Assembly: GCA_963752775.1 (NCBI GenBank)
Contig: CAVVZL010000035.1
Location: 10,249-74,248, forward strand
Source: an uncultured Chloroflexia bacterium
Lineage (GTDB): Bacteria; Chloroflexota; Anaerolineae; Anaerolineales; Villigracilaceae
Length of the DNA: 64,000 nucleotides
Direction of reading: 5' to 3'
Position numbers and translations under genes: made by a program. A model generated the notes under the pieces. That model worked only from the letters and a program-made list of their open reading frames with translations, did not search any database and was not told the origin of the DNA. This document shows, in pieces, positions 2,367-64,000 of this stretch; positions within the stretch are counted from its first letter, which is position 1, and each line of letters opens with the position of its first letter.

Positions 2367-2735
2367 TGAGTAATTTTGCCTGGGGTCATTTATTGCACCG
2401 CTGCTCAGGTGCTACAAAGGGTGCCTATAAGCTGCTGGCGACAGAAAATGTGCGGCAGACCAAAAGGAATCGATGAAATCACTGGCGCAGGGCAGATACA
2501 ATGTAAACATAAATATTACCAATGGCGAGACCAGACATAACGCCAATACCAGGTTTTTTATGGGGAAGTTTCGGCAAGACGTGATGAATCGGTCATGCTA
2601 ATCGTAAAAAAATTGATATACTCACGCTGGAGTATATCTTAACGCAAGTTAAAGGCCTGATATGGATTTGTCTGCAAAAAGAACTGGCAGCGGCAGGATC
2701 TTTGACCTTCAATAATATTTCAAAGTAATGAATAA

Positions 2736-5993: not shown

Positions 5994-6106
5994 AGAACCG
6001 CTCAAAATTATTGTGCTATTCTATCATAGCAGAACTACACGCCAAAAAAAGCGGGCTATAGATCTCATCTGACAAGACCTTGAAAGCGCCTATACGTTTC
6101 AGATTC

Positions 6107-7424: not shown

Positions 7425-8159
7425 GACCTCTTCCTTAACTCCTTTCTCCATAAAAAATAGGCATATCCTACAATAAATAGAATTGAAAACGAGAACCATT
7501 GAAAGACAGTAATTTAAGTTATTCGCACCGGAAGACAAATCCAAAGTTTCCTGTTGGATGGGGATGGGAGGATTTATGACGGCTCGATCAGGATTTAGCT
7601 TAATATACACCGGCAGTATCGGATACGGAATTTGTTGGCGGATGCGATCTATGTTGATATAGATCCAAAAATCCAGCCTGGTTTGGCCCGGAGTTAAAGT
7701 TGGATCTGAATTGCTGCCAAAGGTCGGTTGCGACTGTCCAAGGCGGATGGTACCGCTGACCATCACCTCCCCCGGCTGATCGTATTTGTGCCAATCAGCG
7801 GGGGTTGGATTACCTTCAGAGGGAATTGAACCGCGATCAACAAGAACCGCTTCCCCGTCAGAAAGCTGGAGTGGCGTAAATAGATCATACCCGGGTTGAA
7901 TGCCATCGTATTGATCACGGGTCGCGATTTGATTCTGGAAGTCATAAGTTCCGCTGGCTGTGACCGCGCGATATTCCATTGTCGTCAACTCCACTTTCGC
8001 CGGTAGATTAAGTGGCGGCATGGCTTGCACTGCATAAACATGGGTGGAAAAGGATCTTTCCTGTTTAAACCGATCCACTTGCCAGAAGCCTAAACGGATA
8101 CATACAACGGCTGCGACAATAATCAAAAGAGTCGCAAGCCAATAGCGGCGACTGAACAT
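7421..8159 (-). CDS. SURF1/Shy1-family cytochrome oxidase assembly protein (frame break near 7503)
   Basis: MFSRRYWLATLLIIVAAVVCIRLGFWQVDRF is a SURF1 N-terminus. The true C-terminus QWFSFSILFIVGYAYFLWRKELRKRS is recovered in another frame. Its TGA (7421..7423) overlaps the ctaA ATG (7422..7424). Confidence 0.75.
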
Positions 8160-8170
8160 CAAATTTATGA

Positions 8171-8695
8171 TTAGTTTGTAATTGCTTTTTTGGGCGGCCA
8201 TATCAGCAAACTGTACAGGACAAAAAGCATCGCCATCGGAACGCCGCCGATAAATATGCCCCACAATCGCGTATCCCATGTGAGCGCTTCGCTGACATTC
8301 AGACCGAAGATTTTACTTGGAACAAAGGAACATTGAAAGGCATATTTCTGATCAGTATTAAGCTTCATACTCGCCGAGGAACCAGCCGGGATCCATAAAG
8401 GTCCCAGTTGATGTTCCACCGAGTCTTCGTTCTTGACCACCAGGGTATCGCCGACAACAAAGCTCATATTTTGCGGAATAGATGGAGGTTGTTGTCCCGA
8501 CGCAACACGACGCGCCGTACCCGGCGGAATCACGAGCAGAATTTCTTGCGCCGGACGTGTGGCGATATTCATCTGAGGAAATAACAAAAATGGTATCTCC
8601 GCCAGCAAGGCGCCAAAGATCAGTCCCAAAACAAGCAGTAGAAGGGAGCGCCTTACAATTGGATTCTGCAACATGAATATGGTCTTTGCTTTCAT
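8171..8695 (-). CDS. hypothetical two-TM membrane protein embedded in the cox operon
   Basis: ORF 8171..8713 trimmed to ATG 8695. N- and C-terminal TM helices flank a beta-rich domain of about 110 aa (VVGDTLVVKNEDSVEHQLGPLWIPAGSS...). No Cu/heme motif and no family recognised. Confidence 0.5.
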   Translation of the reverse strand: MKAKTIFMLQNPIVRRSLLLLVLGLIFGALLAEIPFLLFPQMNIATRPAQEILLVIPPGTARRVASGQQPPSIPQNMSFVVGDTLVVKNEDSVEHQLGPLWIPAGSSASMKLNTDQKYAFQCSFVPSKIFGLNVSEALTWDTRLWGIFIGGVPMAMLFVLYSLLIWPPKKAITN

Positions 8696-8755
8696 TACAT
8701 AATGGATGGGCAATCAAGCGGCCGCCCATTCATTTTACTTCACATTAGTTTAATT

Positions 8756-9532
8756 TCAGATTAGCTTGCCGATCAAATACAAAGCTGGATAAAAGAAAAT
8801 CCAAACCACATCGATAAAGTGCCAATAAACCGTCGCCGATTTAACTGCCCAGTGTTTCTCAGGCGAATATACGCCGCGCAATCCGTTCCGCAAGACAATG
8901 CTGAGGAAGATCACGCCGGTCAATACATGGAAGGCATGCATACCTGTCATGATGAAGAAAATAGCGCCCGCCGCATTCGAGGATGTGGTCACGCCTGCAC
9001 GGATGGCAGATGGCCACTCAACCATGATCACACCGGCCAAAAATAGCAAGCCAAGCAGGATAGTTAGCGAGATTCCAATAATAAAACCCTTGCGGTCACC
9101 GTGTTCCATAGATACTTCCGCACGATTCATAAAGAATGACGACAGCAAAAGCACTGACGTTATAGTCAATGCAATATATTGACTATCAGGACTTAATGGC
9201 AAACCTGTCAGCCCCAGCAAGTTGAACCGGCTGATGAAGAGTCCGCCAAATATAAACGCATCGGAAAGGAGGAATAACCACAACCCCATTCGGCTTGTTG
9301 TAAGCTTATACTGATAGCTATGGCGATCAAGATTATCGTCCTGCACATTTAATCGATAAATATGCATATAGTAGTACATGACCAAACCAACTTTAACAAA
9401 CGCGATCATGGCCAGCAAAACTGTTGAGCCGATTTCAATTGCCACAAAGAACTCAAGCGCAGTCAAAGCCGCAAGAAAAACAAAGACGATTATGCCCTGA
9501 CGGAGGATGTCGGATTTATTAGTATGTTCCAT
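8756..9532 (-). CDS. ctaE: cytochrome c oxidase subunit IV-like N-terminus fused to subunit III
   Basis: ATG 9532 (MEHTNKS...). The first ~60 aa form 2 TM helices ending ...VKVGLVMYYYMHIY, which resembles bacterial subunit IV. They run without a stop into subunit III (MGLWLFLLSDAFIFGGLF ... VYWHFIDVVWIFFYPALYL). Confidence 0.8.
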   Translation of the reverse strand: MEHTNKSDILRQGIIVFVFLAALTALEFFVAIEIGSTVLLAMIAFVKVGLVMYYYMHIYRLNVQDDNLDRHSYQYKLTTSRMGLWLFLLSDAFIFGGLFISRFNLLGLTGLPLSPDSQYIALTITSVLLLSSFFMNRAEVSMEHGDRKGFIIGISLTILLGLLFLAGVIMVEWPSAIRAGVTTSSNAAGAIFFIMTGMHAFHVLTGVIFLSIVLRNGLRGVYSPEKHWAVKSATVYWHFIDVVWIFFYPALYLIGKLI

Positions 9533-9545
9533 CGGTGGTTTCCTT

Positions 9546-11409
9546 TTAATGGCTCTTGTTTTTCTTGTCTTCAAACCGAACATAGACTGAGCCCGGCAAA
9601 CCATAGTCATAAGGTTCGCCAATTACCTCAAAAGGCTGATCATAGTTATGCACCGGCATCGGCGAAGGAACCAGCCATTCAGGTGAACGCGAATTCCAAA
9701 GGTTGCCAGTGGCCACTTCGCCTTTTTTAATGCTAACAAAAAGATTATAGAGAAAGATCAGAACTGAGATTGCAATCAAATAACCTGCAACAGTCATGAC
9801 CAAATGATAATTGTCAAACCCCAGGGCTGGATCATAATCGGCGACGCGGCGGCGCATTCCAAGCAGTCCGACGCGCATCATCAGGAGCGTCAGAGTTAAG
9901 AAATGAGGGCGTCATCAACCAGAAATGAATTTTGCCAAGCTTCTCGTTCATTTTGCGGCCAGTGACTTTGGGGAACCAATAATAGATGGCGGCGAAGAAA
10001 GGATAGATATAACCGCCGAACATGGTGTCATGAAAATGTCCGACGATCCAGTATGTATTTTGTAGGTGCAAATCCGTCGCAACGGTTGCATTCGGAGGTC
10101 CGGAAAGACCGCCCAAAAGGAAGACGACGATCCCACCGACTACAAACAGCATCGGTGTCGGCATTTCAATTTTCCCTTTCCAAATGGTCGCAATCCACGA
10201 GAAAAACTTGACACCCGTCGGAACAGCAACCAAGAGAGTGCTGAACATAAAGGGGATGCGCAAATATGGATTCATTCCCGATACAAACATGTGATGCGCC
10301 CATACGAGGAAACCAACCAAGGCAATCCCCAAAGAGGACATCGCCACAAAACGATAACCGAAAAGGGGCTTCCTAACAAAGACCGGCACGAGTTCCGAAA
10401 TAATACCCAACCCCGGCAGAACAAATACATACACAGCTGGATGAGAATAGAACCAAAATAGATGTTGGAACAATATCGGATTCCCGCCCTTATCGGAATC
10501 AAAGAAACCCATTCCGAACAGGCGCTGGAACATAACCATCTGGAAAGAAAGGCCAATCAACTGAGTCGCGGTTGATGATATCAGGGAGGTTGCGATCGCG
10601 GCCCATACAAAAATTGGCATTCGGAATGCAGTCATTCCCTTGGCTCGCATTCTCAAAACCGTAACGATTAAGTTTATCCCTCCCAGAATGGAAGCCCAGC
10701 CCGCAACCGCCACGCCTAGAAAAAACATCTGCATGCCGAGTGGTGCGCGCTCCGAAAGAGGCGGATAGCCCGTCCAGCCCGTATCAAAGCCTCCAAACAC
10801 AAGAGTTGAAAGCAATAAAATTGCCGCGGGCGGAGCTACCCAATAAGAAAATGCATTCAAGCGTGGGAAAGCCATATCCTGTGCGCCAATCAACATAGGC
10901 ACGAGATAGTTCATCAGGCCGGCCACGCCGAGCAGGATACCAACGATCATGACGATGCCGTGCAAACTCATAAAGGTGTTGTATTCTTGAAGCGTCAAGA
11001 ACTGCAAACCTGAATGCGCCAACTCCGTGCGAAAGATCATGGCGAACAAACCGCCCACACACAGCAAGAATAGCGCCGTCATTGTATACTGCACGCCAAT
11101 TACTTTATGGTCAAGAGAAACGTTGAGATACTTTTCCCAGCCTGGCGGATCTTCGCGGTGCTCGGGAACTTCCTCGCCCTTTGCCCATTTGAACCAATCC
11201 GTCATGGCACCCGTACTGGCTACATACGAGAGAGCACCTACCAACCCGCCAAATACCCAAGCTGGTTCAGTGAAAAGGTATTGACCGGTGACAAATGCAT
11301 TCAATCCCATCAGGACACGAATCCCAGTCAAAAACAATGCACCTGCGATCCATCCCACGAATTGCCAGAGCAGACCGCGTACCAGCGCTGACGTAAGAAA
11401 TTTCCTCAT
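9546..11409 (-). CDS. ctaD: cytochrome c oxidase subunit I (frame break near 9905)
   Basis: WFYSHPAVYV, VWAHHMFVSG, GHFHDTMFGG and GMRRRVADY are present. ORFs 9832..11409 and 9546..9881 join at an AAA/GGG run (9901..9909). Confidence 0.9.
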
Positions 11410-11426
11410 TCTTTTTCTCCGCTCAC

Positions 11427-12458
11427 TTACTTTAGCGACTCGATATAAGCCACGATATCGCTGATCTGAGATTGAGATAAAACGGTTCCGAATGTCTTCG
11501 GCATTACGTTATCCTGAAAGCCATCCACGATCTTTGCACTTGGATTGACAATTGACTCAATCAAATACGCCTCGTTCGCCGTCACAACCGTGCCGGGCGC
11601 TACATTGGTTCCGCCAGACATTTTGACTTGTGAGAGATAAAGTCCCTTCCAGGTTGGAGCAATGCCGGTGCTACTACCGTCCACGGAATGACAACCTGTG
11701 CAACCATACTTGGCAACCAATTGTTGGCCGCGCCCTATCGGAGTTTGAGCCGCCACAGCCGCCGCCGCGAGTTGCGTTTGAATCCATGAATCATAATCAG
11801 CCTGCGAGCTCACAATGACTGGTGCAGTCATATAGGAGTGCTTTAAGCCGCACAACTGCGCGCACTCCACCTGATAGGTTCCGATCAGGTCCGGCGTGAC
11901 ACGATAAGTGGTGATGCGGCCCGGTAAAATATCCTGCTTCATGCGAAATTGAGGTACAAAGAATGAATGGATGACATCCGTGGATTGCATGTTCAACACG
12001 ACTTGACGATTAACAGGCAAATGCAACTCGGTGGAAGTAAACCCCGCCGGGTAGTCAAATTCCCATGACCATTGGCGGGCAGTCACATTTATTTCCAAAG
12101 CGTTTGGGTCCACCGCCATTACTTCCCCCAAGGTATACGTGCCCATATATGCAAGAACGAGAACAGTAATCAAAGGAATAACTGTCCAAATAATTTCCAG
12201 AGTATTGTTTCCTTCAATATGCGGACCATCCGATGTATCCCCTTTCTTCCGGCGAAACACAATCAGGCTATAAATCAGAGGAACCATGATCAGCGCAAAG
12301 AGAAAGCAAATAATAGCAATCTCAACATTCCACAACTGATCTATCGGAATGGATTGCGCACTGGCCTCGACAGGCATTAACTTTATGGCCATCAACCCGG
12401 CATAAGTAGCTATAGCTAAAACAACTACCAGCACGCCGGTAATTACATAATGTCGCAT
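11427..12458 (-). CDS. ctaC: cytochrome c oxidase subunit II with C-terminal cytochrome c domain (caa3-type)
   Basis: CuA site HSFFVPQF...CAQLCGLKHSYM, C-terminal CTGCHS heme-c motif and two N-terminal TM helices. Confidence 0.9.
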   Translation of the reverse strand: MRHYVITGVLVVVLAIATYAGLMAIKLMPVEASAQSIPIDQLWNVEIAIICFLFALIMVPLIYSLIVFRRKKGDTSDGPHIEGNNTLEIIWTVIPLITVLVLAYMGTYTLGEVMAVDPNALEINVTARQWSWEFDYPAGFTSTELHLPVNRQVVLNMQSTDVIHSFFVPQFRMKQDILPGRITTYRVTPDLIGTYQVECAQLCGLKHSYMTAPVIVSSQADYDSWIQTQLAAAAVAAQTPIGRGQQLVAKYGCTGCHSVDGSSTGIAPTWKGLYLSQVKMSGGTNVAPGTVVTANEAYLIESIVNPSAKIVDGFQDNVMPKTFGTVLSQSQISDIVAYIESLK

Positions 12459-26882: not shown

Positions 26883-28361
26883 TTAAGCAAGCCCGGCAAA
26901 GTAATCCGTCTTGACTTGATAGCTTGCTACTCCGAGTTTACGCAAAGCATCAGTCAAGGAATTTACCATGCTGCGCGAGCCCGAAATATAGAATAAACAA
27001 TTCCGATAATCCGGCACAGCCGCCTTGATCATCTGCGGATTGATGCGACCCACCTGTCCAGTCCATGAATTAGGTAAATTGCTATTATCGGTCACCGAAT
27101 ATATTGTTTTGATGCCCAATTCATATTGAGCCCGATCAAATACATCCTTGTAAACAAAATCATTGACCGTTGTGGCGGTGTAAAACAGAGTAATCAGTCT
27201 ACGCTGGCGGCTATCAAGCAAAGACTTGATCATGCTTCTGAATGGCGTGACGCCGATACCACCAGCGATGAGAACGACCTTCTGTTGCGGATTCTCGGGC
27301 AAAACAAAATCACCCGCCAATTGAGAGGCGACGATTTCAGTATCTTTGTCCATCGCAAGCAATGCTTTTTTAAAAGTGCTGGACCTTTGATTGAACTTCA
27401 CCCCCAATCGCAGATTGCGTTCGCCGGGTGAAGATGCCAGCGTGAAATATCGGCGGTTGCCGCGGTCATCAGTATCAGGATGAGCAAGCGTCCATTCCAT
27501 GTATTGACCGGGGACAAAACTAAATCTGCGTGGGGCGGGAAAAATAAATTCATAGGTATCGGGTGCGATGCGATTCTTTTCCTTAAGCTTCAGGACAAGC
27601 CTATCCTTGGAACTGACGGTATAGGATAATACATTGCCGATCAGAATCGCCACTTCCGGTGTCAAGTAAAATCCATCAAGATGAAATTGCGGTGTAAACA
27701 GGAAGCCTACCAAAACTCCATATATAATTCGTAACCGTCGAGTAGGCGGAGTCGTAAGCGGCTCTGTCAAGATGATGAATGCAAAGAACAACAATGGTGA
27801 ATAAAGGATTAGCTTTTGCGCCGAGCCAATGAAAGCGACGCCAGTAACCAAACTCGATACAAAGATTGTGGCCACAGCTGCAATCAAGAAACTGAGCACC
27901 ATATCAAACCGACCAAGCTTGCGGACCACGAGCAAGCCGCCCAAGATAACGAAGGTCAGCATTGCGCCGGAACCCACCCACCAACTAGCAGATTGATTGA
28001 TCGTGAAATATGTCAGGGCAACCGCAAAAGCCGCGGGATTAAACAAATGCTTCCCCTTCACCGCCACAATATACTTCGAGGCATTTGCTATAATCGCCGC
28101 CCAAGTGAGAAACCACAGATCATGGAGCGATGTTATCGGGGTGATGATCAGTGCCAGGATCAACGCCGTAATGTAAACCGACTCAACATTCGTTGGCACT
28201 TTAAAAATTTTGGCGAAAACTCGGTTGGTGACTGTGGAAACAGCCAGCAAAAACACGATCGTCAGCGCCAACGCGAAAGGATCAGAGGACGGATTGGCAA
28301 TACTAATGAAAAATGCAACTAAAAGTAGGGCAATTAGATAATAGAGCACGAGCCGGTACAT
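26883..28361 (-). CDS. NqrB/RnfD-like membrane domain fused to FNR-type FAD/NAD(P)H oxidoreductase domain
   Basis: The polytopic N-terminus has KHLFNPAAFA and ILTEPLTTPPT. The C-terminus has RRYFTLASSP (FAD motif) and LIAGGIGVTPF (NAD(P) motif). 492 aa, intact. Confidence 0.7.
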   Translation of the reverse strand: MYRLVLYYLIALLLVAFFISIANPSSDPFALALTIVFLLAVSTVTNRVFAKIFKVPTNVESVYITALILALIITPITSLHDLWFLTWAAIIANASKYIVAVKGKHLFNPAAFAVALTYFTINQSASWWVGSGAMLTFVILGGLLVVRKLGRFDMVLSFLIAAVATIFVSSLVTGVAFIGSAQKLILYSPLLFFAFIILTEPLTTPPTRRLRIIYGVLVGFLFTPQFHLDGFYLTPEVAILIGNVLSYTVSSKDRLVLKLKEKNRIAPDTYEFIFPAPRRFSFVPGQYMEWTLAHPDTDDRGNRRYFTLASSPGERNLRLGVKFNQRSSTFKKALLAMDKDTEIVASQLAGDFVLPENPQQKVVLIAGGIGVTPFRSMIKSLLDSRQRRLITLFYTATTVNDFVYKDVFDRAQYELGIKTIYSVTDNSNLPNSWTGQVGRINPQMIKAAVPDYRNCLFYISGSRSMVNSLTDALRKLGVASYQVKTDYFAGLA

Positions 28362-28383
28362 CGTGATGCGGTTCAGCTGATTA

Positions 28384-29160
28384 TCAACGAATTAAATCAT
28401 TTAATACATACCTCGTGAAGCCAGCAGTGAAGGTAGCTTGTTTATCTTTATCAATCATATATCCTTCGAAGCCTGGCAGATATTCGATGAAATCAATTCC
28501 GGATCGTCCCATCGCAAACGCAGAAGTCGCAAACCGATCCGCTTCGTAAACATCGGGCCCAATCACAGTCAGACTCAAAATGTCAGTAATGTCTTTTCCG
28601 GAATCCATTGGATTATAAATATGCTGACCGCGCACATACGTTCCCGAAGTTGCCACGCCACAATCAGAAACCGATAATACTTTGACGAGCTCGTCCCTGT
28701 TGAATGGGTTGCGGATGCCAACACGCCATTTCTCGCCCTGACTGTTCTTTCCGCAGGCTTGAATATCGCCACCCGCGTCCACATAGAAATTTTCAAAACC
28801 CATTTTATGAAAAATCTCAGCGGCGTTATAAATAGCCCAGCCTTTAACAATACCGGACGGATCAATAATGCCGTTGTGATGAATGTCGAAATAACCATTC
28901 GACTCGCGGCGCGTTTGTTCAGCTAACTCAAAGATCAGTTTCATTTCTTCGCCGGCCTCATCCAACTTCAAGTCGCCGCGATTGAGGCTTGAGATTTCGC
29001 TCGAATCTTTATAGGTGCTGAATTTATCATCAACGTATTGAAAGTAATCAAACACGTCATCGAGAGCCGAGTCGCTGATCATCGGACCCACGACTTCCAG
29101 CGTGATCGGCATGCCCATCATAATGCGCGTCTGCTTTACGCAATCAATGAGCATTGGCAA
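28384..29160 (-). CDS. apbE: ApbE-family FAD:protein FMN transferase
   Basis: MGMPITLEV..., FSTYKDSSEIS, VDAGGDI and VATSGTY... are ApbE signatures. The start is uncertain (29160/29154/29121) and no signal peptide is visible. It overlaps the upstream gene end. Confidence 0.8.
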   Translation of the reverse strand: MPMLIDCVKQTRIMMGMPITLEVVGPMISDSALDDVFDYFQYVDDKFSTYKDSSEISSLNRGDLKLDEAGEEMKLIFELAEQTRRESNGYFDIHHNGIIDPSGIVKGWAIYNAAEIFHKMGFENFYVDAGGDIQACGKNSQGEKWRVGIRNPFNRDELVKVLSVSDCGVATSGTYVRGQHIYNPMDSGKDITDILSLTVIGPDVYEADRFATSAFAMGRSGIDFIEYLPGFEGYMIDKDKQATFTAGFTRYVLNDLIR

Positions 29161-44563: not shown

Positions 44564-45805
44564 TCAAGCGCCGAGGGTTTTGAGGTAATCACGAATCGCC
44601 ATCGCGGCAGATGCGCCCTCACCGGCGGCGGAGGCGGCCTGCTTTGTTGATCCGGCGCGCACATCGCCGGCCACAAAGACTCCCGGCAGATTGGTCATCA
44701 TGTGCGGCGCTTTGATAAAGCCGCGGTCATCCAATTCGGCTTTATCTTTTACTAAATCATTATTCGGTGTCAATCCGATAAACACAAAAACACCATCATA
44801 ATGAGTTTCTTTGGTTTCATCCGTTGCAAGGTTCCGGAGAATAACAGCGTCCAATTTCTGCTTGCCTCGTAATTCTTTAACAGCATGATTCAAAATCACA
44901 TGCATATCTGATCTTTCAGCAACTTTATCTTGAAGTATCTTGCTGGCCTTCGGTTCCAATGAATTAACAACGATATCCACCTGTGTCGCGAATTTGGTTA
45001 GAAACAAGCCTTCTTCAAACCCGCTGTTGCCGCCGCCTACCACCAGGACTTTCTTGCCCTTATAAAACGCACCGTCACAGGTGGCACAAAAGTGAACATT
45101 GATCCCAAGCAAATCATCTTCGCCAGGAACTTCCATGCGGCGATAACTCGCACCTGTTGTAAGCAAAAGCGCCTGCGTGTGATAATGAATCTCGGAGCCG
45201 ATCTCTACTGCAAGGTATTGACCTTCGCGATCGATCGCGACAACTTCCTGCGCCTGTAAAATTTCCACGCCGAATTTTCTCGCCTGCCTTCCAAGCCGCG
45301 CCGCGAACTCGGCACCCGCGATGCCTTCATCGAATCCGGGAAAGTTATCAAGAGTTTGCGTTACGCTAGATTGTCCGCCCAATCCGGCTTTTTCAATCAC
45401 AAGCACGTCGCAACCTTCGCGCGCCAGAAAAAGCGCGGCCGTCAATCCGGATGGCCCGCCACCAACCACAATCACATCGTAATACGAGCGCTTTGCTTCC
45501 GTATTCAACCCGAGCTTTTGAGCAAGTTGCGCATTGGAAGGTTCAACCAGAACGCTCCCGTCGGGAAAGATAATAGTAGGAATGATGCGCTTGCCTTCAT
45601 TGATCTTTTCAATGAATTCCACGCTCTGAGGATCGTCATCAATATCCACGTTGAAATATTGAATTCGCTGATCGCCAAAGAATTGTTTGGTGCGTTTGCA
45701 ATCAGGGCACCACACGGCGCCATAAACCACAATCATCGAGGGATTTAAGTTATAAAGATCGGAAAAACGCCTAAACCGTGTAGAAGTATTCTTTTTCCGC
45801 GCCAT
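44564..45805 (-). CDS. trxB: glutaredoxin/NrdH-like domain fused to thioredoxin-disulfide reductase
   Basis: ATG 45805. The N-terminal ~95 aa carry WCPDC. They are followed by VVGGGPSGLTAA (FAD), the CATCDG redox centre, VVGGGNSG (NADPH) and VFVAGDV. Confidence 0.85.
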   Translation of the reverse strand: MARKKNTSTRFRRFSDLYNLNPSMIVVYGAVWCPDCKRTKQFFGDQRIQYFNVDIDDDPQSVEFIEKINEGKRIIPTIIFPDGSVLVEPSNAQLAQKLGLNTEAKRSYYDVIVVGGGPSGLTAALFLAREGCDVLVIEKAGLGGQSSVTQTLDNFPGFDEGIAGAEFAARLGRQARKFGVEILQAQEVVAIDREGQYLAVEIGSEIHYHTQALLLTTGASYRRMEVPGEDDLLGINVHFCATCDGAFYKGKKVLVVGGGNSGFEEGLFLTKFATQVDIVVNSLEPKASKILQDKVAERSDMHVILNHAVKELRGKQKLDAVILRNLATDETKETHYDGVFVFIGLTPNNDLVKDKAELDDRGFIKAPHMMTNLPGVFVAGDVRAGSTKQAASAAGEGASAAMAIRDYLKTLGA

Positions 45806-45863
45806 AATTTCTCCTTTGAGGCATAGATATGGGGAATCCACAGCTTCTTACAGTTATATTATT

Positions 45864-55085: not shown

Positions 55086-56195
55086 TCAATGGTCCGCCGG
55101 TGCCGCGCCCGCCCAGGTCGCCAGTCGGTTACGTCCGGCGCGTTTTGCCTGAAACACGGCTTGGTCCGCATGGTCAATCAACGCTTCCACATTTTCACAG
55201 GTCGAGTCGAGGGCAGCTAGACCGAGGCTGATTGTTAATCTCTGGATGGCCGCGGTACTGAGGGAAGCGGTGTCCATTTGCTTAAAGTAATTGCGCACCA
55301 TTCCTTGATCCACCTGTTCTACTTCAATCCGCAAACGCTCAGCAACTAACACGGCCCCCGCTACGCTTGTGCTGGGCAGAATCAGGGTAAATTCATCGCC
55401 GCCATATCTACCAAAAATGTCCACGTTTCGGATTTGGCGACGACACAGTTCAACGATGATCTTTAATATCCAATCCCCCACCTTATGTCCATGACGATTA
55501 TTGAATTCCCTGAAGCGATCCACATCGATCATGACTGCCGCGAGTGGGTAGCGATACCGCTGGGCCTGCGCGAATTCTAGGCCAGCCAACTCAAAAAGTT
55601 TGCGCCTGTTCAAAATCCCAGTTAATGCATCGGTATCGGCAAGCCGTTTTACTTGTTGGAATAAGTTGGCATTTTCCAGAACGATGGCCGCATGGGAAGC
55701 AAGCATTTCCAGCAATTCCTGGTCTTCAAGCGTATAGGCATTCTCGGTATAAGATTGGACAGATATCATGCCGATCACTTTTCCGCGCAACCGCATGGGC
55801 ACTGCGATCAGAGATCGCGTGATGCGCTGGCTTCCATACAGTTCAAACCGGATACCGCTAGCGGCAATTGTTTCGGAATTGCTGAGCAAGATGGGCTTCC
55901 CCGATTGGAAGATGGTGCCGGCTAGGCCATGGTCTGCAAGATAACGAGGCGGATAAGCCCGAAGGCGGGGCGGTTCGATCAGGTAAAGCGGCACCACTTC
56001 ATTGGTTGCTTCGTCGTAGCCGTCAATGATGAAGTCTTCACAAGGCAACACCCTTTCCACGACGTTGTGAATAGCAACATACAATTCTTCGAGGTTAAGG
56101 GTCGCACCTAATTCCTGGCTGGCGAGATATAAGCCTTCCCAGCGATTGTCATGATTAGCAGCAGTTTTGGCCATTGGAGCTATTTTACCATTCAT
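55086..56195 (-). CDS. GAF-domain diguanylate cyclase (GGDEF)
   Basis: ATG 56195 overlaps the pbpC TGA (ATGA at 56192..56195). GAF block SLIAVPMRLRGKVIGMISVQSY, then DALTGILNRR...RYGGDEFTLIL. Intact. Confidence 0.85.
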   Translation of the reverse strand: MNGKIAPMAKTAANHDNRWEGLYLASQELGATLNLEELYVAIHNVVERVLPCEDFIIDGYDEATNEVVPLYLIEPPRLRAYPPRYLADHGLAGTIFQSGKPILLSNSETIAASGIRFELYGSQRITRSLIAVPMRLRGKVIGMISVQSYTENAYTLEDQELLEMLASHAAIVLENANLFQQVKRLADTDALTGILNRRKLFELAGLEFAQAQRYRYPLAAVMIDVDRFREFNNRHGHKVGDWILKIIVELCRRQIRNVDIFGRYGGDEFTLILPSTSVAGAVLVAERLRIEVEQVDQGMVRNYFKQMDTASLSTAAIQRLTISLGLAALDSTCENVEALIDHADQAVFQAKRAGRNRLATWAGAAPADH

Positions 56196-58671
56196 GGCAA
56201 GACGACGATGTTCACGGCGTTGCTGGTTACGGTTGCGTTGTTGGCATTTATCCCTTCCACCCAAAAGCTGTGATCCCCCGCCGATAGCGTCCACCAGGTC
56301 TGATAAGGCGGCGCGGAAAAAGTTTGCAATGGATTACCATCCCCATAAATGGTGACTTTGAGAAAAACCCTGACTGGCAACTGCTTCAACCGAAAGTTGC
56401 TGGGCTGATAAATTCAGATCAGAGGTAATGCGATAGGTCGTATTTGGCGAGGGGGAGACTAACATCAATTCATTTGCAGTTTTCGAAATTGCGTCTTGTT
56501 GGATGTCAATTAATAACGGAAGGCCTTGAGTGCGCGCCCAAGGTTGCGCCTCGACGGGCAGATCCAAAGCGACAATGGATTTGCGTCTATCTGGAGGAGT
56601 TAGATCAGTTGCAAGCGAATTCGTCAGCGCATCAATCCAAACTGGTTGATAATATGTATCGGTTTGTGTTGGCTCGGTGCCATCGATAAACCATTCCATG
56701 CGCGTGTATGGGCAAGCCGGAGTTGGAAGCAAACCGGAAAGATCGCACACTTCCACCTGCTTCATTCCATCCGGTCGAATGAACGGCTCATCCGGTTGGC
56801 CGGCCAATAGGGCGCGCATGGTTTCATTCCAAATCGGCGCGGCGCCGGTCACGCCGGTGACGTCATGCATCGCCTCGTAATTGCTATTCCCAACCCAAAC
56901 ACCGACCAGCAAATCGGGAGTGTAACCAATCGTCCAATTATCGTGGAAGTTCGTTGTCGTTCCGGTCTTGACCGCTGCAGTGTGGTCGATCTTTAAAGTG
57001 CTGTTGAGACCAAAGCCGATTTCGCGGGCGCTGTCGTCGCTAAGGATATCGCTAATGAGCCAAACGACGCGCGGATCAAAGGCTTGAAGCGGCGGAGTTT
57101 TATCCTGTGTATAAAGCAAGTTGCCATCCGCATCGCGAATATCAAGGATCGAATAATTTCCCGTGTAATATCCGCCGTTCGCCAAACTTGCATATGCCGT
57201 CGAAAGCTGGAGTAGGCTGATCTCGCCGCCGCCCAGCACCAGCGATAAATCATAGTCCTGCGGATCGCCAAGCGAAGTAATGCCGAGATGATCCGCAAGA
57301 TTGATCGTGTTTTCGATGCCCACTTTCTCTAAGGTTCGCACGGCGGGAATATTCAACGATGAAGCCAGCGCCTCGCGCATCGAGACCGGGCCGTGCTCGC
57401 GGCCATCATAATCAACCGGCGTATACGGTTGTCCATTGTGCGTGATGAACGTGGTGGAAACATCCAATAACTGAAGTGGCTGCCGTCCACGGTTCGGGTT
57501 GATTTGGATCCAAAGCCAAAGCATAAATGAATGGCTTGAAGGCCGAGCCGGTTTGGCGCGGCGAGGTGGCCATATCGAGCGCGCCGTCAATGGACGAATC
57601 GAAATAATCCGCGCTGCCGACCAGCGCAAGGATTTCTCCGTTATGCGGATCGAGAATCACCAGCGCGGCATTATTGACGTTGTGATTGATCTCGTTGGGT
57701 TTGGGCTTGAACTCCTCGATGTGGCGCGCCACGATTTGTTCGGCGAGTTCTGATCGTTCAAATCTAGCGTGGTGCGCACGACCAGGCTTTGATTTGGATT
57801 CAATTTTCCCGATGAGAATAACGCGTCCAGTTGATCCTTGATGATCCAGATGAAATGCGGCGCTTCAATCGGATAAGGAGCCGGGTTATAACTCAGAGGC
57901 GCAGCTTCGGCAGCGACGCGTTGTTCGTCCGTGATATAGCCTTGGGTTTCCATCAACCCCAACACAACTTGTTGACGCTGTTTCGCAAGATCGGGATTTG
58001 TAAATGGATCATAAAGTCCCGGTGCTTGCGGCAGGCCCGCGAGCATGGCACATTCGGGCAAGATCAAATCATTGGCTGATTTACCAAAATATGTCCGCGC
58101 GGCAGCTTCGACACCGTAAGCCATGCCACCATAATTAACTTGATTCAAATATAATGAGAGAATATCATTCTTCGAGTATTTCTGTGTCAACTCCCAAGCC
58201 AAAAGTGTTTCACGGAGTTTGCGGCGCAAAGTCCGTTCGTAACGCTCGTTTTGGCTCAATAATAAATTGCGCACTACTTGTTGAGTGATGGTGCTGCCGC
58301 CGGCAATTGTATCGCCGCCGCGCACGTCAATCCATAAAGCCCGGAGAATGCCTTCAAGGTCAAAACCCGGATTGCCGTAAAAGTTTTTATCCTCGACGGC
58401 AATGGTCGCATCCTTCATGCATTGCGGAATATTTTCAAAAGACAGCACTGCATGGCGTCCGCCTTGTTCTGGCAAAATATCATACAGCAGGCGGCCATTT
58501 CGATCCGTGATGCGAATACTGGGCGCGTCCAGGTTTGATGGAAGTAGAATTGATGGACGGCAAATCCCAAAATATATAAACGAGTAATCCGATGAGAACT
58601 ATAAGTCCTGCAGGCAGGAATAGCTGCCATTTGATTCTTTGGAAAGTTACACGTTCAATTGACTGGCGCAT
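56192..58671 (-). CDS. pbpC: bifunctional class A penicillin-binding protein, PBP1C-like (GT51 + transpeptidase + BiPBP_C-like C-terminal domain; at least four frame breaks)
   Basis: N-terminal TM anchor. GT51 motifs AVEDKNFY and GGSTITQQ. Transpeptidase motifs TGSAFKPFIYA (SxxK) and VKTGTT. The C-terminal Ig-like domain VTIYGDGNPLQTFSAPPYQTWWTLSAGDHSFWVEG lies in ORF 56192..56389. Confidence 0.8.
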
Positions 58672-58856
58672 CTGTTTATTGTAGCGCGTATCGGGATGAA
58701 GTTTTGTATCTCGATCTTCAGGTGGATGGCAATAAAAAATGAAGTAAACTTGATTGCTGGCGAGGATGTAAAGAAATCGCTGCAGCTCGAGCCAATAAGC
58801 ATCGTAATCATTCGGACCAGCAAAATAAATTCTTTGAAAAGAGATTAAACGTTGTA

Positions 58857-59901
<1,045 letters not shown>

Positions 59902-60033
59902 GAAGCTCTGCGGAGGCCAAAATCGGCGGCAACTGTTGCCTACATAATGGAACCCACGGGGGATAAGCTTTACGCGTGCAGTTCTTCCAGTTTGAAAAGA
60001 GGAAGGCGTTCATAAGTAAAAGGGCGAAATATC

Positions 60034-60929
60034 CTACTTGATAATTACAAAGATTGACATGATCGCTAGCTGTGCCATCGGATAATAACTGGCGTGATCA
60101 AACAATGTTGCTGCCCGACATCCTTCCTGATGGCGGAATAGCTGATAACCAGGTTTGAGGAGCAGCACGAAACCCACAACAGTACTTGCCAACAGATAGG
60201 GCCAGCCCAAATGCAGCGGCGAAATCGTTGGCAGGAGCATGCCGATAATTACCGTAAGTCCTAACGCAATAAGAACAATAAGCCCTGCTCTTTTGGTGCC
60301 AAAGTGGATGGGAATCGTTTTGGCATTGACGCGCCTGTCTTCGACGGTATCGTTCCAGTCTGCCGGGAATATTTTGCCCTCCGATTTCCCAAAAGAATAC
60401 CCAGGCAAATATTAGTACTAGGAGATATAGGCGAAGGGTGCCGATCTACAACAAAAACGGCAGCTAAAGGTCCACAGGACTTGACCATCCCACTTACCAG
60501 CGTCCGCAAGTAAGTGATTTTCAAAAGTAGACAATAAACGACTTCCAGAATTACGGCGGCAACCAAAATGATGACAATTGAAGCGTTGAGCAGGTAGGAA
60601 CCGATAAGCGCCAATCCAAACCAGGCGACAAACCAAATCAATCCGTCCCGGTAACTAAGCACTTTCTGCGCCAACGGATAGCGCACATCAGATGCTTCGA
60701 CAGAATACCCAGAGTTGATGCCCCCCGCAAACTTTTCCCGATCCACAGCAATGCCAACAAGATCGTTTAAGGCATATATCGATGTATAAGCGGCAAAAGC
60801 GGTGATAAGCGAAAGTAGAATGATCTGCCACTGAGGAAAACTACCCAAGCAAAGCAAAGTGCAAAAACCAGGGGTGGCAATATCCAAAACTCCATGTGTG
60901 GTCCTTGAAAGCGCGAAAAATCGTTTCAT
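60034..60929 (-). CDS. UbiA-superfamily aromatic/polar-head prenyltransferase (two frame breaks near 60400..60430)
   Basis: YALNDLVGIAVDRE (variant of NDxxDxxxD) and ADWNDTVEDRRVNAKTIPIHFG (second Asp-rich motif). About 8-9 TM helices. ORFs 60261..60929, 60418..60636 and 60034..60408 join. Confidence 0.75.
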
Positions 60930-60951
60930 ACACCATCCTTCCTTGCAGGAA

Positions 60952-61648
60952 CTAATTCTTCTTGATGAAATGCGCCATGTAATTCACATCTTCTTTGCCT
61001 GCGGCCACCTTGAATTTGCGCGTGAAAGGGTTATACATCAGGCTGGAAAGCCTTGAAAATTCCAAGCTGTTTTCTTCAGCCCAATTTTTCAATTCTCGGG
61101 GACGAATTAGATTTTTGGTACGTATGAGTTCCTCTTGGAAGAAGGCGTAATATATATTCGCCGCCAATGATGGCGAACAGAAAGGCTTTCGGCGTGCGAT
61201 TGATTGTCGAAAAAAAAGCATACCCGCCCGGTTTCAGCGCCTTTGCACAGGCGGTCACAATTTTGCCCGGCTCCGGCACATGCTCTAGCATTTCCATGCA
61301 CGTCACGACATCGAAACTTCCCGCGCGTCTTTGCACAACCTCTTCGACACTTTCATACCGGTAATCTATTTTCAGACCCTGCTTTTGGGCGTGTTGCGCG
61401 GCAACCTCAATAGCTGCCCGGGATAAATCAATGCCCGTTACCTGTGCGCCAGTTCTGGCAAGCGCTTCTGATAAGATACCGCCCCCACAACCTACATCCA
61501 ATATTTTCGGGTTGTGCATAGTTAGCGCTTCCATGATGAAGTTCATACGCAGAGGGTTGATGGTATGGAGGGTCCCCATTTCTCCCTCGGGATCCCACCA
61601 GATTTGAGATACCCTGTCGAACTTTTCAATTTCTCGTGTTGTCAGCAT
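60952..61648 (-). CDS. UbiG-like class I SAM-dependent (O-)methyltransferase (frame break near 61100)
   Basis: WWDPEGEMGTLHTINPLR, ILDVGCGGGILSE (motif I), VVTCMEMLEHVP and GGYAFFSTINRT are close to the UbiG pattern. The C-terminus FIRPRELKNW... is in ORF 60952..61221. Confidence 0.75.
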
Positions 61649-61650
61649 TT

Positions 61651-62793
61651 TCAAATGATGTCATGTTTTATGGCGATCCAATCTTCCAGTGATCTGACAG
61701 CGGATTTGATTTCGTGCGCATCGACATCATTCACAAAAACACATTTTCCTATGCCGTGCGGCAATGGAACTCTTTGCAATCCATTGCGGTGAAATGGCGC
61801 GCTCTTCCAAAGACTGCCAGAGCAGGCAAGGATCGAGAATAGTCCCGTCCAGCATAATCCCCAGCTTGGCGATCAGGTGGAATATCCTGCCGGTCTCCTC
61901 TTCGGATAATCAAGTTCCGCATCCTGGCAATTAGAATGGATATGGCAATATCGAGCAAAACCGCCTCGCCATGGAACAAATGGGCTTCGTGACGGATCTC
62001 CAGCCCGTAACTAAACGTATGTCCAAAATCCACCTTGCGTGCCAGGTCTTCTTCAAACAAATTCGGCTGCAATTCTTCCACCATCCCGCAAATGGCGCGG
62101 TCAAGAATCGTCTCGCCCTCCTCATTCTGGAATTGGGCATCAATGCTTTTCGCTCCATGTGTTTCCAGCAGGCAGAACAGCCCCGCGTCTTTGATGATGG
62201 CTAATTTGATAATCTCGCATATCCCATTCAGGAGATGACGTTTGGGCAGGGTTTTCAGGAAGGATTTATCCAGCAGAACCTTTTGCGGGGAAGCAAAAGC
62301 CCCAAGCCGATTCTTGTTGCCGTTGAAGTTGACTCCGGTCTTGATGCCTATCGAAGCGTCCACATATCCAATCAGCGTCGTGGGAACTTTGATGTGCGGC
62401 ACGCCCCGCCGATAACTGCCAGCTACAAAGCCAACCACGTCAGTTAGAACGCCCCCGCCAATGGCGATAATTGGCTCGTCTCTGCGATGGATGGGAAAGG
62501 AATCCAGTTCCCGCACGATGGAAAGATAATTTTCCATGGTTTTATTTTCCTCGCCGCCGGGGAATGGGACGATCTTTGCCTCAACCTTGTGATGCGAAAA
62601 ATAATTCCGTATTTCGGCGGAGTAATGTCTTCTCAACATTACTATCCACGACAACAAACCTGCGGCCATTTTCAATTCTTCCCACAGACAGCAGGGCCTC
62701 GTTCTGCGGGTGAAAAAGATTGGGGGCGTTGACAACCTCATATTCAATTGTGTGTTGATAGGTGACACGCCGCATGCACGTTCTATCCGTCAT
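61651..62793 (-). CDS. 3-dehydroquinate-synthase-superfamily sugar-phosphate cyclase (EEVS/DDGS/EboD-like rather than AroB-like; several frame breaks)
   Basis: ATG 62793 overlaps the luxS TGA. GGGVLTDVVGF, VPTTLIGYVDASIGIKTGVNFNGNKNRLG, DFGHTF, HGEAV and C-terminal HRNGLQRVPLPHGIGKCVFVNDV. The last block is recovered in a third frame that ends at TGA 61651..61653. Confidence 0.7.
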
Positions 62794-63269
62794 ACAACCT
62801 GCCGCCATTTAGACTTGGCATCCAACACTCTCCTGGCAACGCCCTGAGCGAGTTCCAGGCTGTGATTTTTATAATTGCCGCATTGCTGAATATTGGCATA
62901 GGGCACTTCACTGGCATTCAAAATATCGGTCAAAATGCGTTCGTACACACTACAAATTTTTTCTGCATTGCCTTCGTTATATAAAACAAGGTAGAAGCCC
63001 GTCTGACATCCCATCAGCCCCACGGAGAGAAAATTCCCTGGCATATATTTTTGAAACCCCGCCAGCAAAAAATGCTCAAAGGAATGCATTTCCGTTGAAG
63101 ACAAAAAGTTTGTATTTGGCTGGTTGATACGCAGGTCAACGCAATAAACCACATCGCCCTTCGGACCTTCTTCAAAGGAACGCAGTTTCACATGTGGGGC
63201 TTTCAATAATCTGTGGTCAAGTTCCCCAACGGTACCGGCATCCCAGCCTAGTTGTTTAACGTCTATCAT
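62790..63269 (-). CDS. luxS: LuxS-family S-ribosylhomocysteine lyase
   Basis: ELDHRLLKAPHVKL, HSFEHF (HxxEH), MGCQTGFYL (catalytic Cys) and QQCGNYKNHSL (metal Cys). All B. subtilis LuxS catalytic and metal residues are alignable by eye. AGGAGAG lies upstream. Confidence 0.8.
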   Translation of the reverse strand: MIDVKQLGWDAGTVGELDHRLLKAPHVKLRSFEEGPKGDVVYCVDLRINQPNTNFLSSTEMHSFEHFLLAGFQKYMPGNFLSVGLMGCQTGFYLVLYNEGNAEKICSVYERILTDILNASEVPYANIQQCGNYKNHSLELAQGVARRVLDAKSKWRQVV

Positions 63270-63368
63270 AAATCTCTCCTATTTCTGAATGGATGGATGA
63301 TCTGCTCGCATCGATTACCTATTGAAACCATGTTCTGCCAAAATGGCATTATCGTCAATGGAATGTAT

Positions 63369-64000
63369 TTACACAAATTGTGACAAATGCCTGAAACTGT
63401 CGTTCAACGCCTTTTCCCATGATTGAACATGGTGGTACAACTCAACCGACGCATATCCGGAAAATCCATGATCCGTTAAAGCCTTGAAACTGGCAGCAAA
63501 ATCAAGCGTTCCTTCGCCCGGGATTTCATGAAAGTGAACAATGCCCGTCAGGGTATTTGCAACCATCTTATCCACCAGCAATTTGCCGTCTGGGTCTCTT
63601 GTGCTTCGCAAATAAATAAGGATTGGTCTTGCCCTTTCCAGCACATCAAAACTCAACCCCGGCACCGAAATCAAGTAGGTGAAGATTTCGTCGTCGAATG
63701 GAGTTGAACCTGCGAACAGTCCGTGGTAATCCACATAGACTGGCGTCTGCGTAATGTTGACGGAGTTCAGGATGGAATCAATACGCTTTTCCTGCTCCCT
63801 GCCGGGTTTTTCATCGTAAAAATACATGGGATGGTTTCTGTCCACCAACAAATAATCCACAGATTCCGGGAAGTAAATCAGGTAGCTGGCGAAGTCAAGA
63901 TCAAGAGTCAGAATTCTCTGCCATCTTCACAATTTTCAAGTTATATCCTGCTTGGGCATCGGAAACGTGGAGATAACGTGTGTATGGAGCGGCCTGTGCC
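63369..64000 (-). CDS. xylose-isomerase-like TIM-barrel (sugar phosphate isomerase/epimerase family) protein, partial at window edge, frame break near 63860
   Basis: The C-terminal half has VHFHEIPGEGTLDF...GFSGYASVELYHH. An upstream part (...LDLDFASYLIYFPE) lies in another frame. The N-terminus is beyond 64000. Confidence 0.6.

Follow-up and report, generated by a model that had tools for sequence, protein, structure and literature searches.

What would a bacterium make with a LuxS-family protein whose gene lies between those of a TIM barrel and a sugar-phosphate cyclase, in an operon completed by relatives of UbiG and UbiA? The question is posed by positions 60034-64000 of a 64,000-nucleotide stretch (the window) of contig CAVVZL010000035.1, from an uncultured Chloroflexia bacterium of the Anaerolineales. 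Open reading frame (ORF) listing and domain scans place five closely spaced genes there, all on the minus strand, for a TIM barrel, a LuxS-like protein, a cyclase resembling 3-dehydroquinate synthase (DHQS), a UbiG-like methyltransferase and a UbiA prenyltransferase. We find that they form a real and strongly conserved cassette, probably for biosynthesis of a cyclitol-derived prenylated metabolite; it is not an artefact, and it does not belong to the ebo clusters, of which an initial annotation had called it a variant. The working hypothesis offered with that label, in which a sugar phosphate gives rise to an O-methylated carbocycle anchored by a prenyl chain, fits everything found. Two features appear to be without precedent: a LuxS-family enzyme in cyclitol processing, sometimes fused to the TIM barrel, and a UbiG near-orthologue as a tailoring enzyme.

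Layout of the cassette

The five genes, in the order in which they are read, are:

63369..64000, minus strand: 3' part (amino acids ~205-413 of 413) of a xylose-isomerase-like TIM barrel, placed by tblastn mapping; runs past the window end; extra base near 63913
62790..63269, minus strand: LuxS-family protein of 159 amino acids, frame intact; Pfam LuxS (PF02664), 115 bits
61651..62793, minus strand: predicted sedoheptulose-7-phosphate cyclase of the EEVS type (EEVS, synthase of 2-epi-5-epi-valiolone), DHQS fold, ~380 amino acids; stop at 61651-61653; extra bases near 62629, 61911 and 61797
60952..61664, minus strand: UbiG-family S-adenosylmethionine (SAM)-dependent O-methyltransferase, ~237 amino acids; stop at 60952-60954; extra bases near 61638 and 61111
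60034..60929, minus strand: UbiA-superfamily intramembrane prenyltransferase, 297 amino acids; ATG at 60929; extra bases near 60429 and 60371

The genes are tightly coupled and lie where the initial annotation had put them. The TIM-barrel gene, of which only the 3' part from 63369 onward is inside the window, is separated from luxS by 99 nt (63270-63368). The luxS stop and the cyclase start overlap as ATGA at 62790-62793, the junction reading gtt gtA TGA cgg (MTDRTCMRRVTYQ), and 22 nt separate the methyltransferase stop from the UbiA ATG at 60929. These distances, the cyclase TGA at 61651-61653 and both quoted cyclase motifs, DASIGIKTGVNF and HRNGLQRVPLPHGIGKCVFVNDV, had been read correctly. 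The methyltransferase ATG at 61648 had not: it is a frameshift artefact created by the extra base near 61638, and the start that agrees with all relatives is the ATG at 61664 (MTSFENADN...), giving a 14-nt overlap with the 3' end of the cyclase gene. The same overlap recurs in relatives (L002/L003; cyclase 10477-11616, methyltransferase 11603-12313). Promoter and terminator scans of 59600-64000 returned no more sites than shuffled sequence did, and Rfam and tRNA scans of the window gave no matches.

Broken reading frames

The reading frames of the operon are broken seven times within about 3.9 kb, with one break in the part of the TIM-barrel gene inside the window, three in the cyclase gene, one in the methyltransferase gene and two in the UbiA gene, as would be expected were it a decaying pseudogene cluster whose frameshifts are real. 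Comparison of the window with its nearest relative (L005, 89% DNA identity) reveals one surplus base per ~300-700 bp, no gene of the aligned stretch (56251-64000) being spared, and the genes for penicillin-binding protein PBP1A and for GalT are as densely affected as those of the operon. Nearly all the coding-region indels are +1 insertions, and those whose contexts were inspected are not in homopolymer runs. Amino acid identity to the unbroken relative is 75-95% in almost every tblastn segment, no in-frame stop lies between the shifts, and the orthologues in three relatives (L003, L004, L005) are unbroken. Because the same insertions hit PBP1A, GalT and operon genes alike, we take the frameshifts to be sequence or assembly errors and consider decay of the operon highly improbable. 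The insertion signature is systematic, and any gene call in the window therefore needs frame correction.

Conservation and spread of the five-gene unit

The GTDB was scanned, one genome per species, with the TIM barrel as query. Eighty loci were returned, 64 of them long enough to judge, and in 60 of these 64 all five genes are co-directional and in the same order. A second, independent collection, of metagenomes, gave the same co-directional set in 44 of 46 eligible loci, and several of its lineages are only 50-59% identical to L005. Co-directionality at this frequency in two independent collections places the arrangement far beyond chance, and the conservation of gene order that the initial annotation had proposed to check is thus borne out. 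The GTDB exceptions are three loci without adjacent UbiA and/or methyltransferase genes (L010, L015, L042) and one in which UbiA is relocated upstream (L030). Additional ORFs interrupt the series in two loci: one of 480 amino acids (~1.4 kb, 4958-6400), transposase-looking, between methyltransferase and UbiA in L027, and, in L039, one of 202 amino acids (2506-3114) that separates the cyclase from the LuxS-like gene.

The unit ends with these five. In five annotated neighbourhoods the gene order is identical and the flanks are unrelated, and clustering of flanking ORFs from 79 loci yielded no sixth gene family in more than 14 of the 79, only antisense shadow ORFs surfacing. The cassette is therefore exactly five genes, and the expectation that extending the contig would recover the remainder of an ebo cluster is not upheld.

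Carriers are mostly Anaerolineales (Ca. Villigracilis, OLB14, CFX2/5/6/11), numbering in the hundreds. Close homologues of the LuxS-like protein fill more than 1000 clusters; among the 120 matches listed identity is 79-94%, and the named ones are metagenome-assembled genomes (MAGs) of Anaerolineales or Chloroflexota. The Chloroflexota distribution that had been anticipated is thus found, although it is not the whole: Rhodanobacter thiooxydans LCS2, R. denitrificans Yn1, two Rhodanobacter MAGs and two Woeseiaceae MAGs, all Gammaproteobacteria, carry the complete operon. Every protein of the operon shows 52-68% amino acid identity between Anaerolineales and Rhodanobacter/Woeseiaceae, from which it follows that the cassette travels between phyla as one block. 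The copies of the two groups are similarly close to the outgroups E. coli UbiG and ValA. On these comparisons the cassette appears self-contained and horizontally mobile.

The supposition that this combination of genes had not been described also stands, insofar as we found no functional description of it in the full texts searched. Its sole mention is a table in which the five genes are neighbours of nirS in one MAG (PMC8756737); beyond that gene list, full-text searching found no link of a valiolone-type or sedoheptulose-7-phosphate cyclase to ubiquinone, other quinones or LuxS.

Comparison with the ebo cluster

The label "ebo-like variant" had a clear basis. UbiA, a DHQS-like enzyme and a xylose-isomerase-like TIM barrel are the superfamilies of EboC, EboD and EboE (PMC5133447; preprint 10.64898/2026.05.21.724671), and ebo, like the route that we propose below, makes an aromatic ring from a cyclitol and then prenylates it. 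The cassette might accordingly be a version of ebo (eboA-F) that makes thallusin or a related prenylated, cyclitol-derived heteroaromatic. The TIM barrel decides otherwise. It scores 16.7 bits against the NCBIfam model TIM_EboE (NF035939; cutoff 250), the Rhodanobacter protein giving no match at E<=10, whereas the unbroken orthologue matches Pfam AP_endonuc_2 (PF01261) with 132 bits, a family that EboE proteins match only marginally. EboD is a mannose-6-phosphate cyclase (PMC12904256), a C6 enzyme, in contrast to the predicted C7 product of the EEVS-type cyclase described in the next section. The preprint, which links ebo to thallusin and so dates the statement that the ebo product is still undefined, reports that eboB and eboF are each required; the annotated neighbourhoods contain no TatD (eboB) or PF01663 (eboF) gene, and no eboA-like gene recurs in the 79 loci. 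Where ebo has its other proteins, the cassette has LuxS-like and UbiG-like ones, neither with a counterpart in ebo; it shows no evident nitrogen source and no enzyme to handle aspartate, and Chloroflexota are not among the eleven phyla for which the preprint finds robust prevalence of the ebo core. Membership of ebo is refuted by the TIM_EboE score and the missing eboA, eboB and eboF, and a thallusin-type product retains next to no likelihood.

The cyclase is of the EEVS type

Alignment to proteins of known structure gave the cyclase 311 bits to ValA, an EEVS (4P53), and 239 to DDGS (5TPR); with AroB structures the score was ~140, with DOIS 116. Against the NCBIfam aroB model it reached 224 bits, under the cutoff of 305. 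Across the family, identity is 39-47% to ValA, 35-41% to DDGS and 27-33% to a DHQS. Pfam PF01761 and PF24621 are both matched, and the E, H, H metal ligands align. The residues at positions equivalent to 281 and 360 of ValA are Asp and His, as in ValA (Ala and Thr in DDGS), in all family loci in which the motif could be located. The KTG of ValA is also present. We take Asp281 and His360 to be the two sites that discriminate EEVS from DDGS, the source for which is reportedly Kean et al. 2014. The site that is His275 in DHQS is Pro in ValA and DDGS; in the clade of Anaerolineales and Gammaproteobacteria it is an invariant Tyr, and in other clades Pro, Leu, Thr, Val or Gln. That there are two sites separating EEVS from DDGS, and a 14-residue active-site set, is confirmed by PMC4426668.

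The cyclase is thus best assigned to the EEVS type within the sedoheptulose-7-phosphate-cyclase branch, and not to AroB. The initial annotation had placed it in a "sedoheptulose-7-phosphate-cyclase/EboD-like" branch; the first half of this assignment, and the exclusion of AroB, agree with the scores (311 against ~140 bits) and the ValA-type residues, while against the second half speak, as indirect evidence, the closeness to ValA and the mannose-6-phosphate substrate of EboD. Two other identities were tried and rejected. A glycerol-1-phosphate dehydrogenase, which with UbiA would make archaeal-type ether lipids, is contradicted by a score of 27 bits to that enzyme against 224-311 to aroB and EEVS. 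An AroB working with an AsbF-like dehydratase to supply protocatechuate for a classical quinone is contradicted by the EEVS-type character of the cyclase and its score under the aroB cutoff.

A LuxS-like subfamily associated with the cyclase

To the solved LuxS structures the LuxS-like protein is 35-42% identical. Sixty-nine cluster sequences were set against five LuxS proteins of the canonical type, four taken from PDB alignments and the fifth, that of B. subtilis, used for numbering only. H11, R39, H54, E57, H58, C84 and C126 are invariant in all 69, and with them the metal ligands H54, H58 and C126; fold and length are also those of canonical LuxS, and the HSFEH, MGC and QCG motifs noted in the initial annotation are all present. 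Position 78, in contrast, is S, G, C, N, T, L or M and never Asp, and R65 is not conserved: the residue seven positions after H58 is Q, R, K, S, P, T or M, although the alignment there is ambiguous by one residue and most lineages have K or R at +1. E57, R65 and D78 are substrate-binding residues seen crystallographically in LuxS (PMC2656534, citing Lewis et al. 2001). Other residues invariant in canonical LuxS are replaced too (S80 by G or A, P81 by L or V, A61 by L, R20 by K), and a conserved LGW...G stretch takes the place of the N-terminal segment that bears Ser6. The protein falls below the cutoff of every NCBIfam LuxS equivalog, the best scores being 127 bits (cutoff 208) and 113 bits (cutoff 158).

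The window protein was searched exhaustively against 1.84 billion cluster representatives, of which 13 matched at E<1e-30. Asp78 is present in none of the 17 best, two of which are fragments without the motif; lower-ranked matches have the canonical D-x-S-P-M-G-C motif together with R65. In all lineages examined, down to 36% identity, the LuxS-like gene adjoins the cyclase gene. These proteins constitute a distinct, cyclase-associated subfamily.

Of the two roles that had been suggested for the protein, recycling of S-ribosylhomocysteine and recruitment to a new cleavage, the second is favoured by the replacement of Asp78, the lack of conservation of R65 and the ties, including fusion, of the gene to those of the cyclase and TIM barrel. 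Loss of D78 and R65 is what a change away from a homocysteine-bearing substrate would predict. The first role belongs with a simpler view of the whole locus, in which ordinary housekeeping genes happen to lie side by side: a normal LuxS, cleaving S-ribosylhomocysteine to clear the by-product of the methyltransferase or to make autoinducer-2 (AI-2), an AroB, and the UbiA and UbiG of a classical quinone pathway. Public annotation, which names the products S-ribosylhomocysteine lyase, 3-dehydroquinate synthase or EEVS, UbiG and UbiA, conforms to this view, as does the retention of all catalytic residues in the LuxS-like protein, and an operon with a "ubiG" methyltransferase is reported to be tied to SAM recycling in Clostridium acetobutylicum (PMC2566862). 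The cyclase scores just described speak against it, as do the altered binding residues and the sub-cutoff scores of the LuxS-like protein, which moreover stays with the cyclase and TIM barrel where no methyltransferase is present, and can be fused to the latter. No family beyond the five recurs in the flanks, no pfs/mtnN was seen in the five Pfam-annotated neighbourhoods, and the five genes transfer together between phyla. Chance proximity of housekeeping genes is on this balance very unlikely.

Fusions and core-only variants

Among the best matches in the LuxS search were natural TIM-barrel::LuxS-like fusions of 424-584 amino acids (P0244, P0250, P0260, P0280, P0289, P0391); named carriers are Desulforadius tongensis and Zooshikella harenae, and Clostridium botulinum also carries the core genes. 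The company of these proteins varies. One locus (L087) has the fusion, cyclase, UbiG-like methyltransferase and UbiA; two (L092, L094) have the fusion and cyclase, and two more (L091, L095) a LuxS-like protein and cyclase. The D. tongensis locus (L098, 8549-14109) comprises fusion and cyclase only, its neighbours being a response regulator of the LytTR type and an EamA-family transporter on the opposite strand. In C. botulinum (L096/L097, 6730-15190) the S component of an ECF transporter, the cyclase, an FkbM-type methyltransferase (PF05050), the TIM barrel and the LuxS-like protein come in that order, without UbiA or UbiG; where genes for biosynthesis lie beside an S component, the compound is typically vitamin-like. 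Genes for an APH-family kinase and for a DHBP synthase (RibB) that stands alone lie 1-3 kb downstream in the same organism.

The invariant core is thus cyclase, TIM barrel and LuxS-like protein. Loci that lack UbiA (C. botulinum L096/L097, L104, Desulforadius L098/L099) all lack the UbiG-like methyltransferase as well: the two are gained or lost together, which fits a methyltransferase that acts, as UbiG does, on a prenylated, membrane-bound intermediate.

In one further lineage, of an AT-rich bacterium (L088-L090, 493-1918), a LuxR-type regulator (Autoind_bind and GerE domains) and a LuxI-type acyl-homoserine-lactone synthase are encoded divergently, directly upstream of the TIM::LuxS-like fusion. 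Here quorum sensing may control the cassette.

The TIM barrel, methyltransferase and prenyltransferase

The E-D-H-E metal tetrad of the TIM barrel is invariant in a 16-sequence alignment across its family, and an insertion of ~130 amino acids follows the His-x-x-Asp strand. The structures nearest to its AlphaFold model are UlaE, ketose 3-epimerases, TM0416, AsbF and IolI, all of which act via an enediolate beside a carbonyl; the model is of moderate quality only (pLDDT 72) and does not separate an epimerase from a dehydratase.

The methyltransferase is closer to its namesake than the initial annotation, which correctly called it UbiG-like, had recognised. The unbroken orthologue scores 266.8 bits against TIGR01983 UbiG (cutoff 102.95), alignment to E. 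coli UbiG (4KDC) extends over the full length (residues 5-232) with 250 bits, and family members are 44-55% identical to the E. coli protein. The MEMLEHV block is identical, and the segment NR..K..L....G.EYILR..P.GTH, which we take to be the membrane- or lipid-binding region of UbiG, aligns without gaps. At ~50% identity and more than twice the cutoff score, the protein is a UbiG near-orthologue. Its usual partners do not lie nearby: annotated neighbourhoods and flank clustering revealed no UbiA of the 4-hydroxybenzoate type, UbiD/X, hydroxylase or UbiE gene near the cassette.

The prenyltransferase is harder to place. Its unbroken orthologue matches Pfam UbiA (PF01040) with 87 bits and lies below all NCBIfam subfamily cutoffs: 58 bits for ubiA_other (cutoff 181), and 50 (269), 35 (430) and 31 (275) for others, the last being the 4-hydroxybenzoate UbiA equivalog; UbiA, MqnP and DGGGPS equivalogs as a set give 20-50 bits against cutoffs of 269-430. 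A search of the PDB found no sequence relative. The second Asp-rich motif, DWNDTxEDxRVNAKT, is conserved; the first, read by eye as NDLVGIxVD, has Gly for the middle Asp of the canonical NDxxDxxxD.

A possible route from sedoheptulose 7-phosphate to a quinol

The families described can be assembled into a reaction sequence. We infer each of its chemical steps, the order of the second and third, the aromatisation and the identity of the product; the atom-by-atom match between cyclitol and ubiquinol ring is likewise our own chemical reasoning. Three pieces of established chemistry are needed. 2-epi-5-epi-Valiolone, C7H12O6, carries its ketone at C1 and single hydroxyls at C2-C4; C5 bears both OH and CH2OH, and C6 is a CH2. 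In classical LuxS the C1 carbonyl of the substrate moves to C3, the C4 proton is removed and the C5 substituent expelled, leaving a methyl-ketone terminus. The ubiquinol ring bears, in order, O, OMe, OMe, O, CH3 and polyprenyl, and E. coli UbiG performs both O-methylations of ubiquinone.

In the first step, the EEVS-type cyclase would convert sedoheptulose 7-phosphate into 2-epi-5-epi-valiolone or a stereoisomer. In the second, the Fe/Zn site of the LuxS-like protein, with its Cys and Glu bases, would act on the keto-cyclitol: the carbonyl would move from C1 to C3, C4 be deprotonated and the C5 hydroxyl eliminated. The register of the classical reaction would be kept, the keto-cyclitol offering C1-C5 just as the classical LuxS substrate does, with a hydroxyl as the leaving group. 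In the third, the metal-dependent TIM barrel, belonging with ketose 3-epimerases, inosose isomerase and the IolE/AsbF dehydratases to a class of enzymes that form enediolates, would carry out further enolisation and a second dehydration, loss of the C7 hydroxyl via a C4 carbonyl converting CH2OH to a ring methyl. The outcome would be aromatisation to 5-methylbenzene-1,2,3,4-tetrol, C7H8O4, which is the cyclitol minus 2 H2O; the change is redox-neutral, and the absence of any oxidoreductase from the cassette matches such a route. UbiA would then prenylate the single free ring carbon, and the UbiG homologue methylate the two inner hydroxyls at the membrane. The resulting pattern, O, OMe, OMe, O, CH3, prenyl, would be that of ubiquinol, reached without chorismate, C-methyltransferase, decarboxylase or O2-dependent hydroxylases.

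Beside the known ubiquinone pathway, in which UbiA and UbiG work with UbiC, D, X, H, I, F and E or with the O2-independent UbiT/U/V, the proposal retains the UbiG near-orthologue, the UbiA superfamily and the predicted ring pattern. It differs in that the ring would come from a sugar phosphate and not from chorismate via 4-hydroxybenzoate, with all four ring oxygens and the C-methyl supplied by the sugar; no decarboxylase, hydroxylase or UbiE would be needed, and the prenyltransferase is not a 4-hydroxybenzoate UbiA.

We attach different degrees of belief to successive parts of this scheme. The product is probably a prenylated, O-methylated ring derived from a sedoheptulose-7-phosphate cyclitol. 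That this ring is aromatic, of the quinol type, we regard as possible, though not yet as probable. That the five enzymes make up a complete route from sedoheptulose 7-phosphate to ubiquinol or a very close analogue, independent of oxygen and chorismate, is a tentative idea and rather to be doubted than assumed.

Several considerations weigh against the quinol scheme. We know of no precedent for aromatisation of a C7-cyclitol by such enzymes, and the chemistry of the route is inferred from sequence. The cyclase, only 39-47% identical to ValA and with Tyr in place of Pro, could form a product other than 2-epi-5-epi-valiolone. The prenyltransferase falls outside the characterised quinone subfamilies, and it may O-prenylate, forming an ether as DGGGP synthase does. 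Rhodanobacter presumably makes ubiquinone-8 already, making the cassette redundant there unless it serves anoxic growth, and to our knowledge ubiquinone has not been reported from Anaerolineae. The core occurs without a prenyltransferase in C. botulinum and Desulforadius, which are strict anaerobes; its product there is therefore itself a soluble molecule, with no need to be the head group of a quinone. Finally, the LuxI/LuxR pair that one lineage has beside the cassette is a hint of a specialised metabolite and not of a core respiratory cofactor.

The chief rival is a product whose ring is not aromatic: a prenylated C7-cyclitol resembling BE-40644, or a gadusol-like methoxy-cyclohexenone with a lipid tail, acting as membrane antioxidant, sunscreen, signal or inhibitor. 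The TIM barrel and LuxS-like protein would then do no more than epimerise, isomerise or singly dehydrate valiolone. BE-40644, of Actinoplanes sp. A40644, is the closest model. Its ring is provided by an EEVS-type sedoheptulose-7-phosphate cyclase, and the pathway includes dehydration of this cyclitol and its prenylation by an enzyme of the UbiA family (PMC5133447). In the cassette, too, an EEVS-type cyclase and a UbiA-family prenyltransferase are encoded together, and both are conserved. The text consulted, the comparison being by description only, reports no LuxS-like protein, 413-amino-acid TIM barrel or UbiG homologue (PMC5133447); the BE-40644 ring is non-aromatic, and its cluster is from a single actinomycete strain, whereas the cassette is found in many Anaerolineales and several other phyla. 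Gadusol and the mycosporines, made by EEVS with MT-Ox and by DDGS with an O-methyltransferase respectively, share with the cassette a sedoheptulose-7-phosphate cyclase followed by O-methylation, and gadusol itself exemplifies the combination of EEVS and methyltransferase (PMC4426668).

A non-aromatic ring would agree also with the epimerases among the nearest structures of the TIM barrel, with a UbiA protein that is in no assigned subfamily and has ether-forming DGGGP synthases among its weak NCBIfam matches, and with the regulators and exporter near some relatives (LuxI/LuxR in one lineage, EamA and LytTR in Desulforadius), which suggest a specialised metabolite. It accounts less well for the methyltransferase, which is neither of the gadusol nor of the caffeoyl-CoA type: it is a UbiG near-orthologue lacking an oxidoreductase domain, and the substrates of UbiG are prenylated catechols. 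Gadusol, moreover, requires an oxidation, for which the cassette has no oxidoreductase; the cassette cyclase has EEVS-type sites, unlike that of the mycosporine pathway, and a prenyltransferase is present. Conservation, even fusion, of two enolising or eliminating enzymes is also more than a single epimerisation requires. We therefore judge a non-aromatic product unlikely, while giving it serious weight.

Host and genomic context

The window encodes a caa3-type cytochrome c oxidase (6189-12458, minus strand), from which we conclude that the host respires. COX2 with a fused cytochrome c domain lies at 11427-12458, COX1 at 9832-11409 and COX3/COX4 at 8756-9622; a 696-amino-acid ORF at 6189-8279, also on the minus strand, combines SURF1, CtaA-like and UbiA-family domains, the last probably a heme O synthase. 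In R. denitrificans Yn1 (L073, 7700-9738) the cassette is immediately preceded by two genes for c-type cytochromes (251 and 495 amino acids, both with matches to cytochrome c domains) that point the same way, and the Rhodanobacter species that carry the cassette are, we believe, the denitrifying ones. The oxidase operon and the heme A/O assembly genes of the window, the nirS neighbour in one MAG, the R. denitrificans cytochromes and the denitrifying habit of these Rhodanobacter species are compatible with a respiratory role.

Three other loci in the window, all on the minus strand, may be recorded. At 26883-28361 an NqrB/RnfD-like membrane domain is fused to an NAD-binding oxidoreductase domain, with an ApbE flavin transferase adjoining (28384-29160); together (26883-29160) they look like an unusual small flavin-based redox module. 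A glutaredoxin domain is fused to a pyridine-nucleotide-disulfide oxidoreductase at 44564-45841, and a GAF-GGDEF diguanylate cyclase lies at 55086-56294, downstream of PBP1A.

Significance

The LuxS-like proteins bear on annotation. More than 1000 sequence clusters in Anaerolineales and other groups that are annotated as S-ribosylhomocysteine lyase are probably not AI-2 synthases, a point of consequence for every metagenomic survey in which luxS counts stand for quorum sensing. Among the carriers are uncultured bacteria abundant in wastewater, anammox reactors, groundwater and soil (Ca. Villigracilis, OLB14, CFX genomes), and there are cultured ones: Rhodanobacter thiooxydans LCS2, R. denitrificans Yn1, Zooshikella harenae, Desulforadius tongensis and Clostridium botulinum group I.

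If the quinol scheme is true, the LuxS family gains a second function, and the core alone, in C. botulinum and Desulforadius, would make a soluble polyhydroxy-toluene or toluquinone. The full cassette would be a new route to a benzoquinol head group, starting from a sugar phosphate, redox-neutral and without need of O2; it would bear on the making of high-potential quinones in anoxia and outside the Proteobacteria, and would give Anaerolineales, denitrifying Rhodanobacter and Woeseiaceae a high-potential quinone under anoxic conditions.

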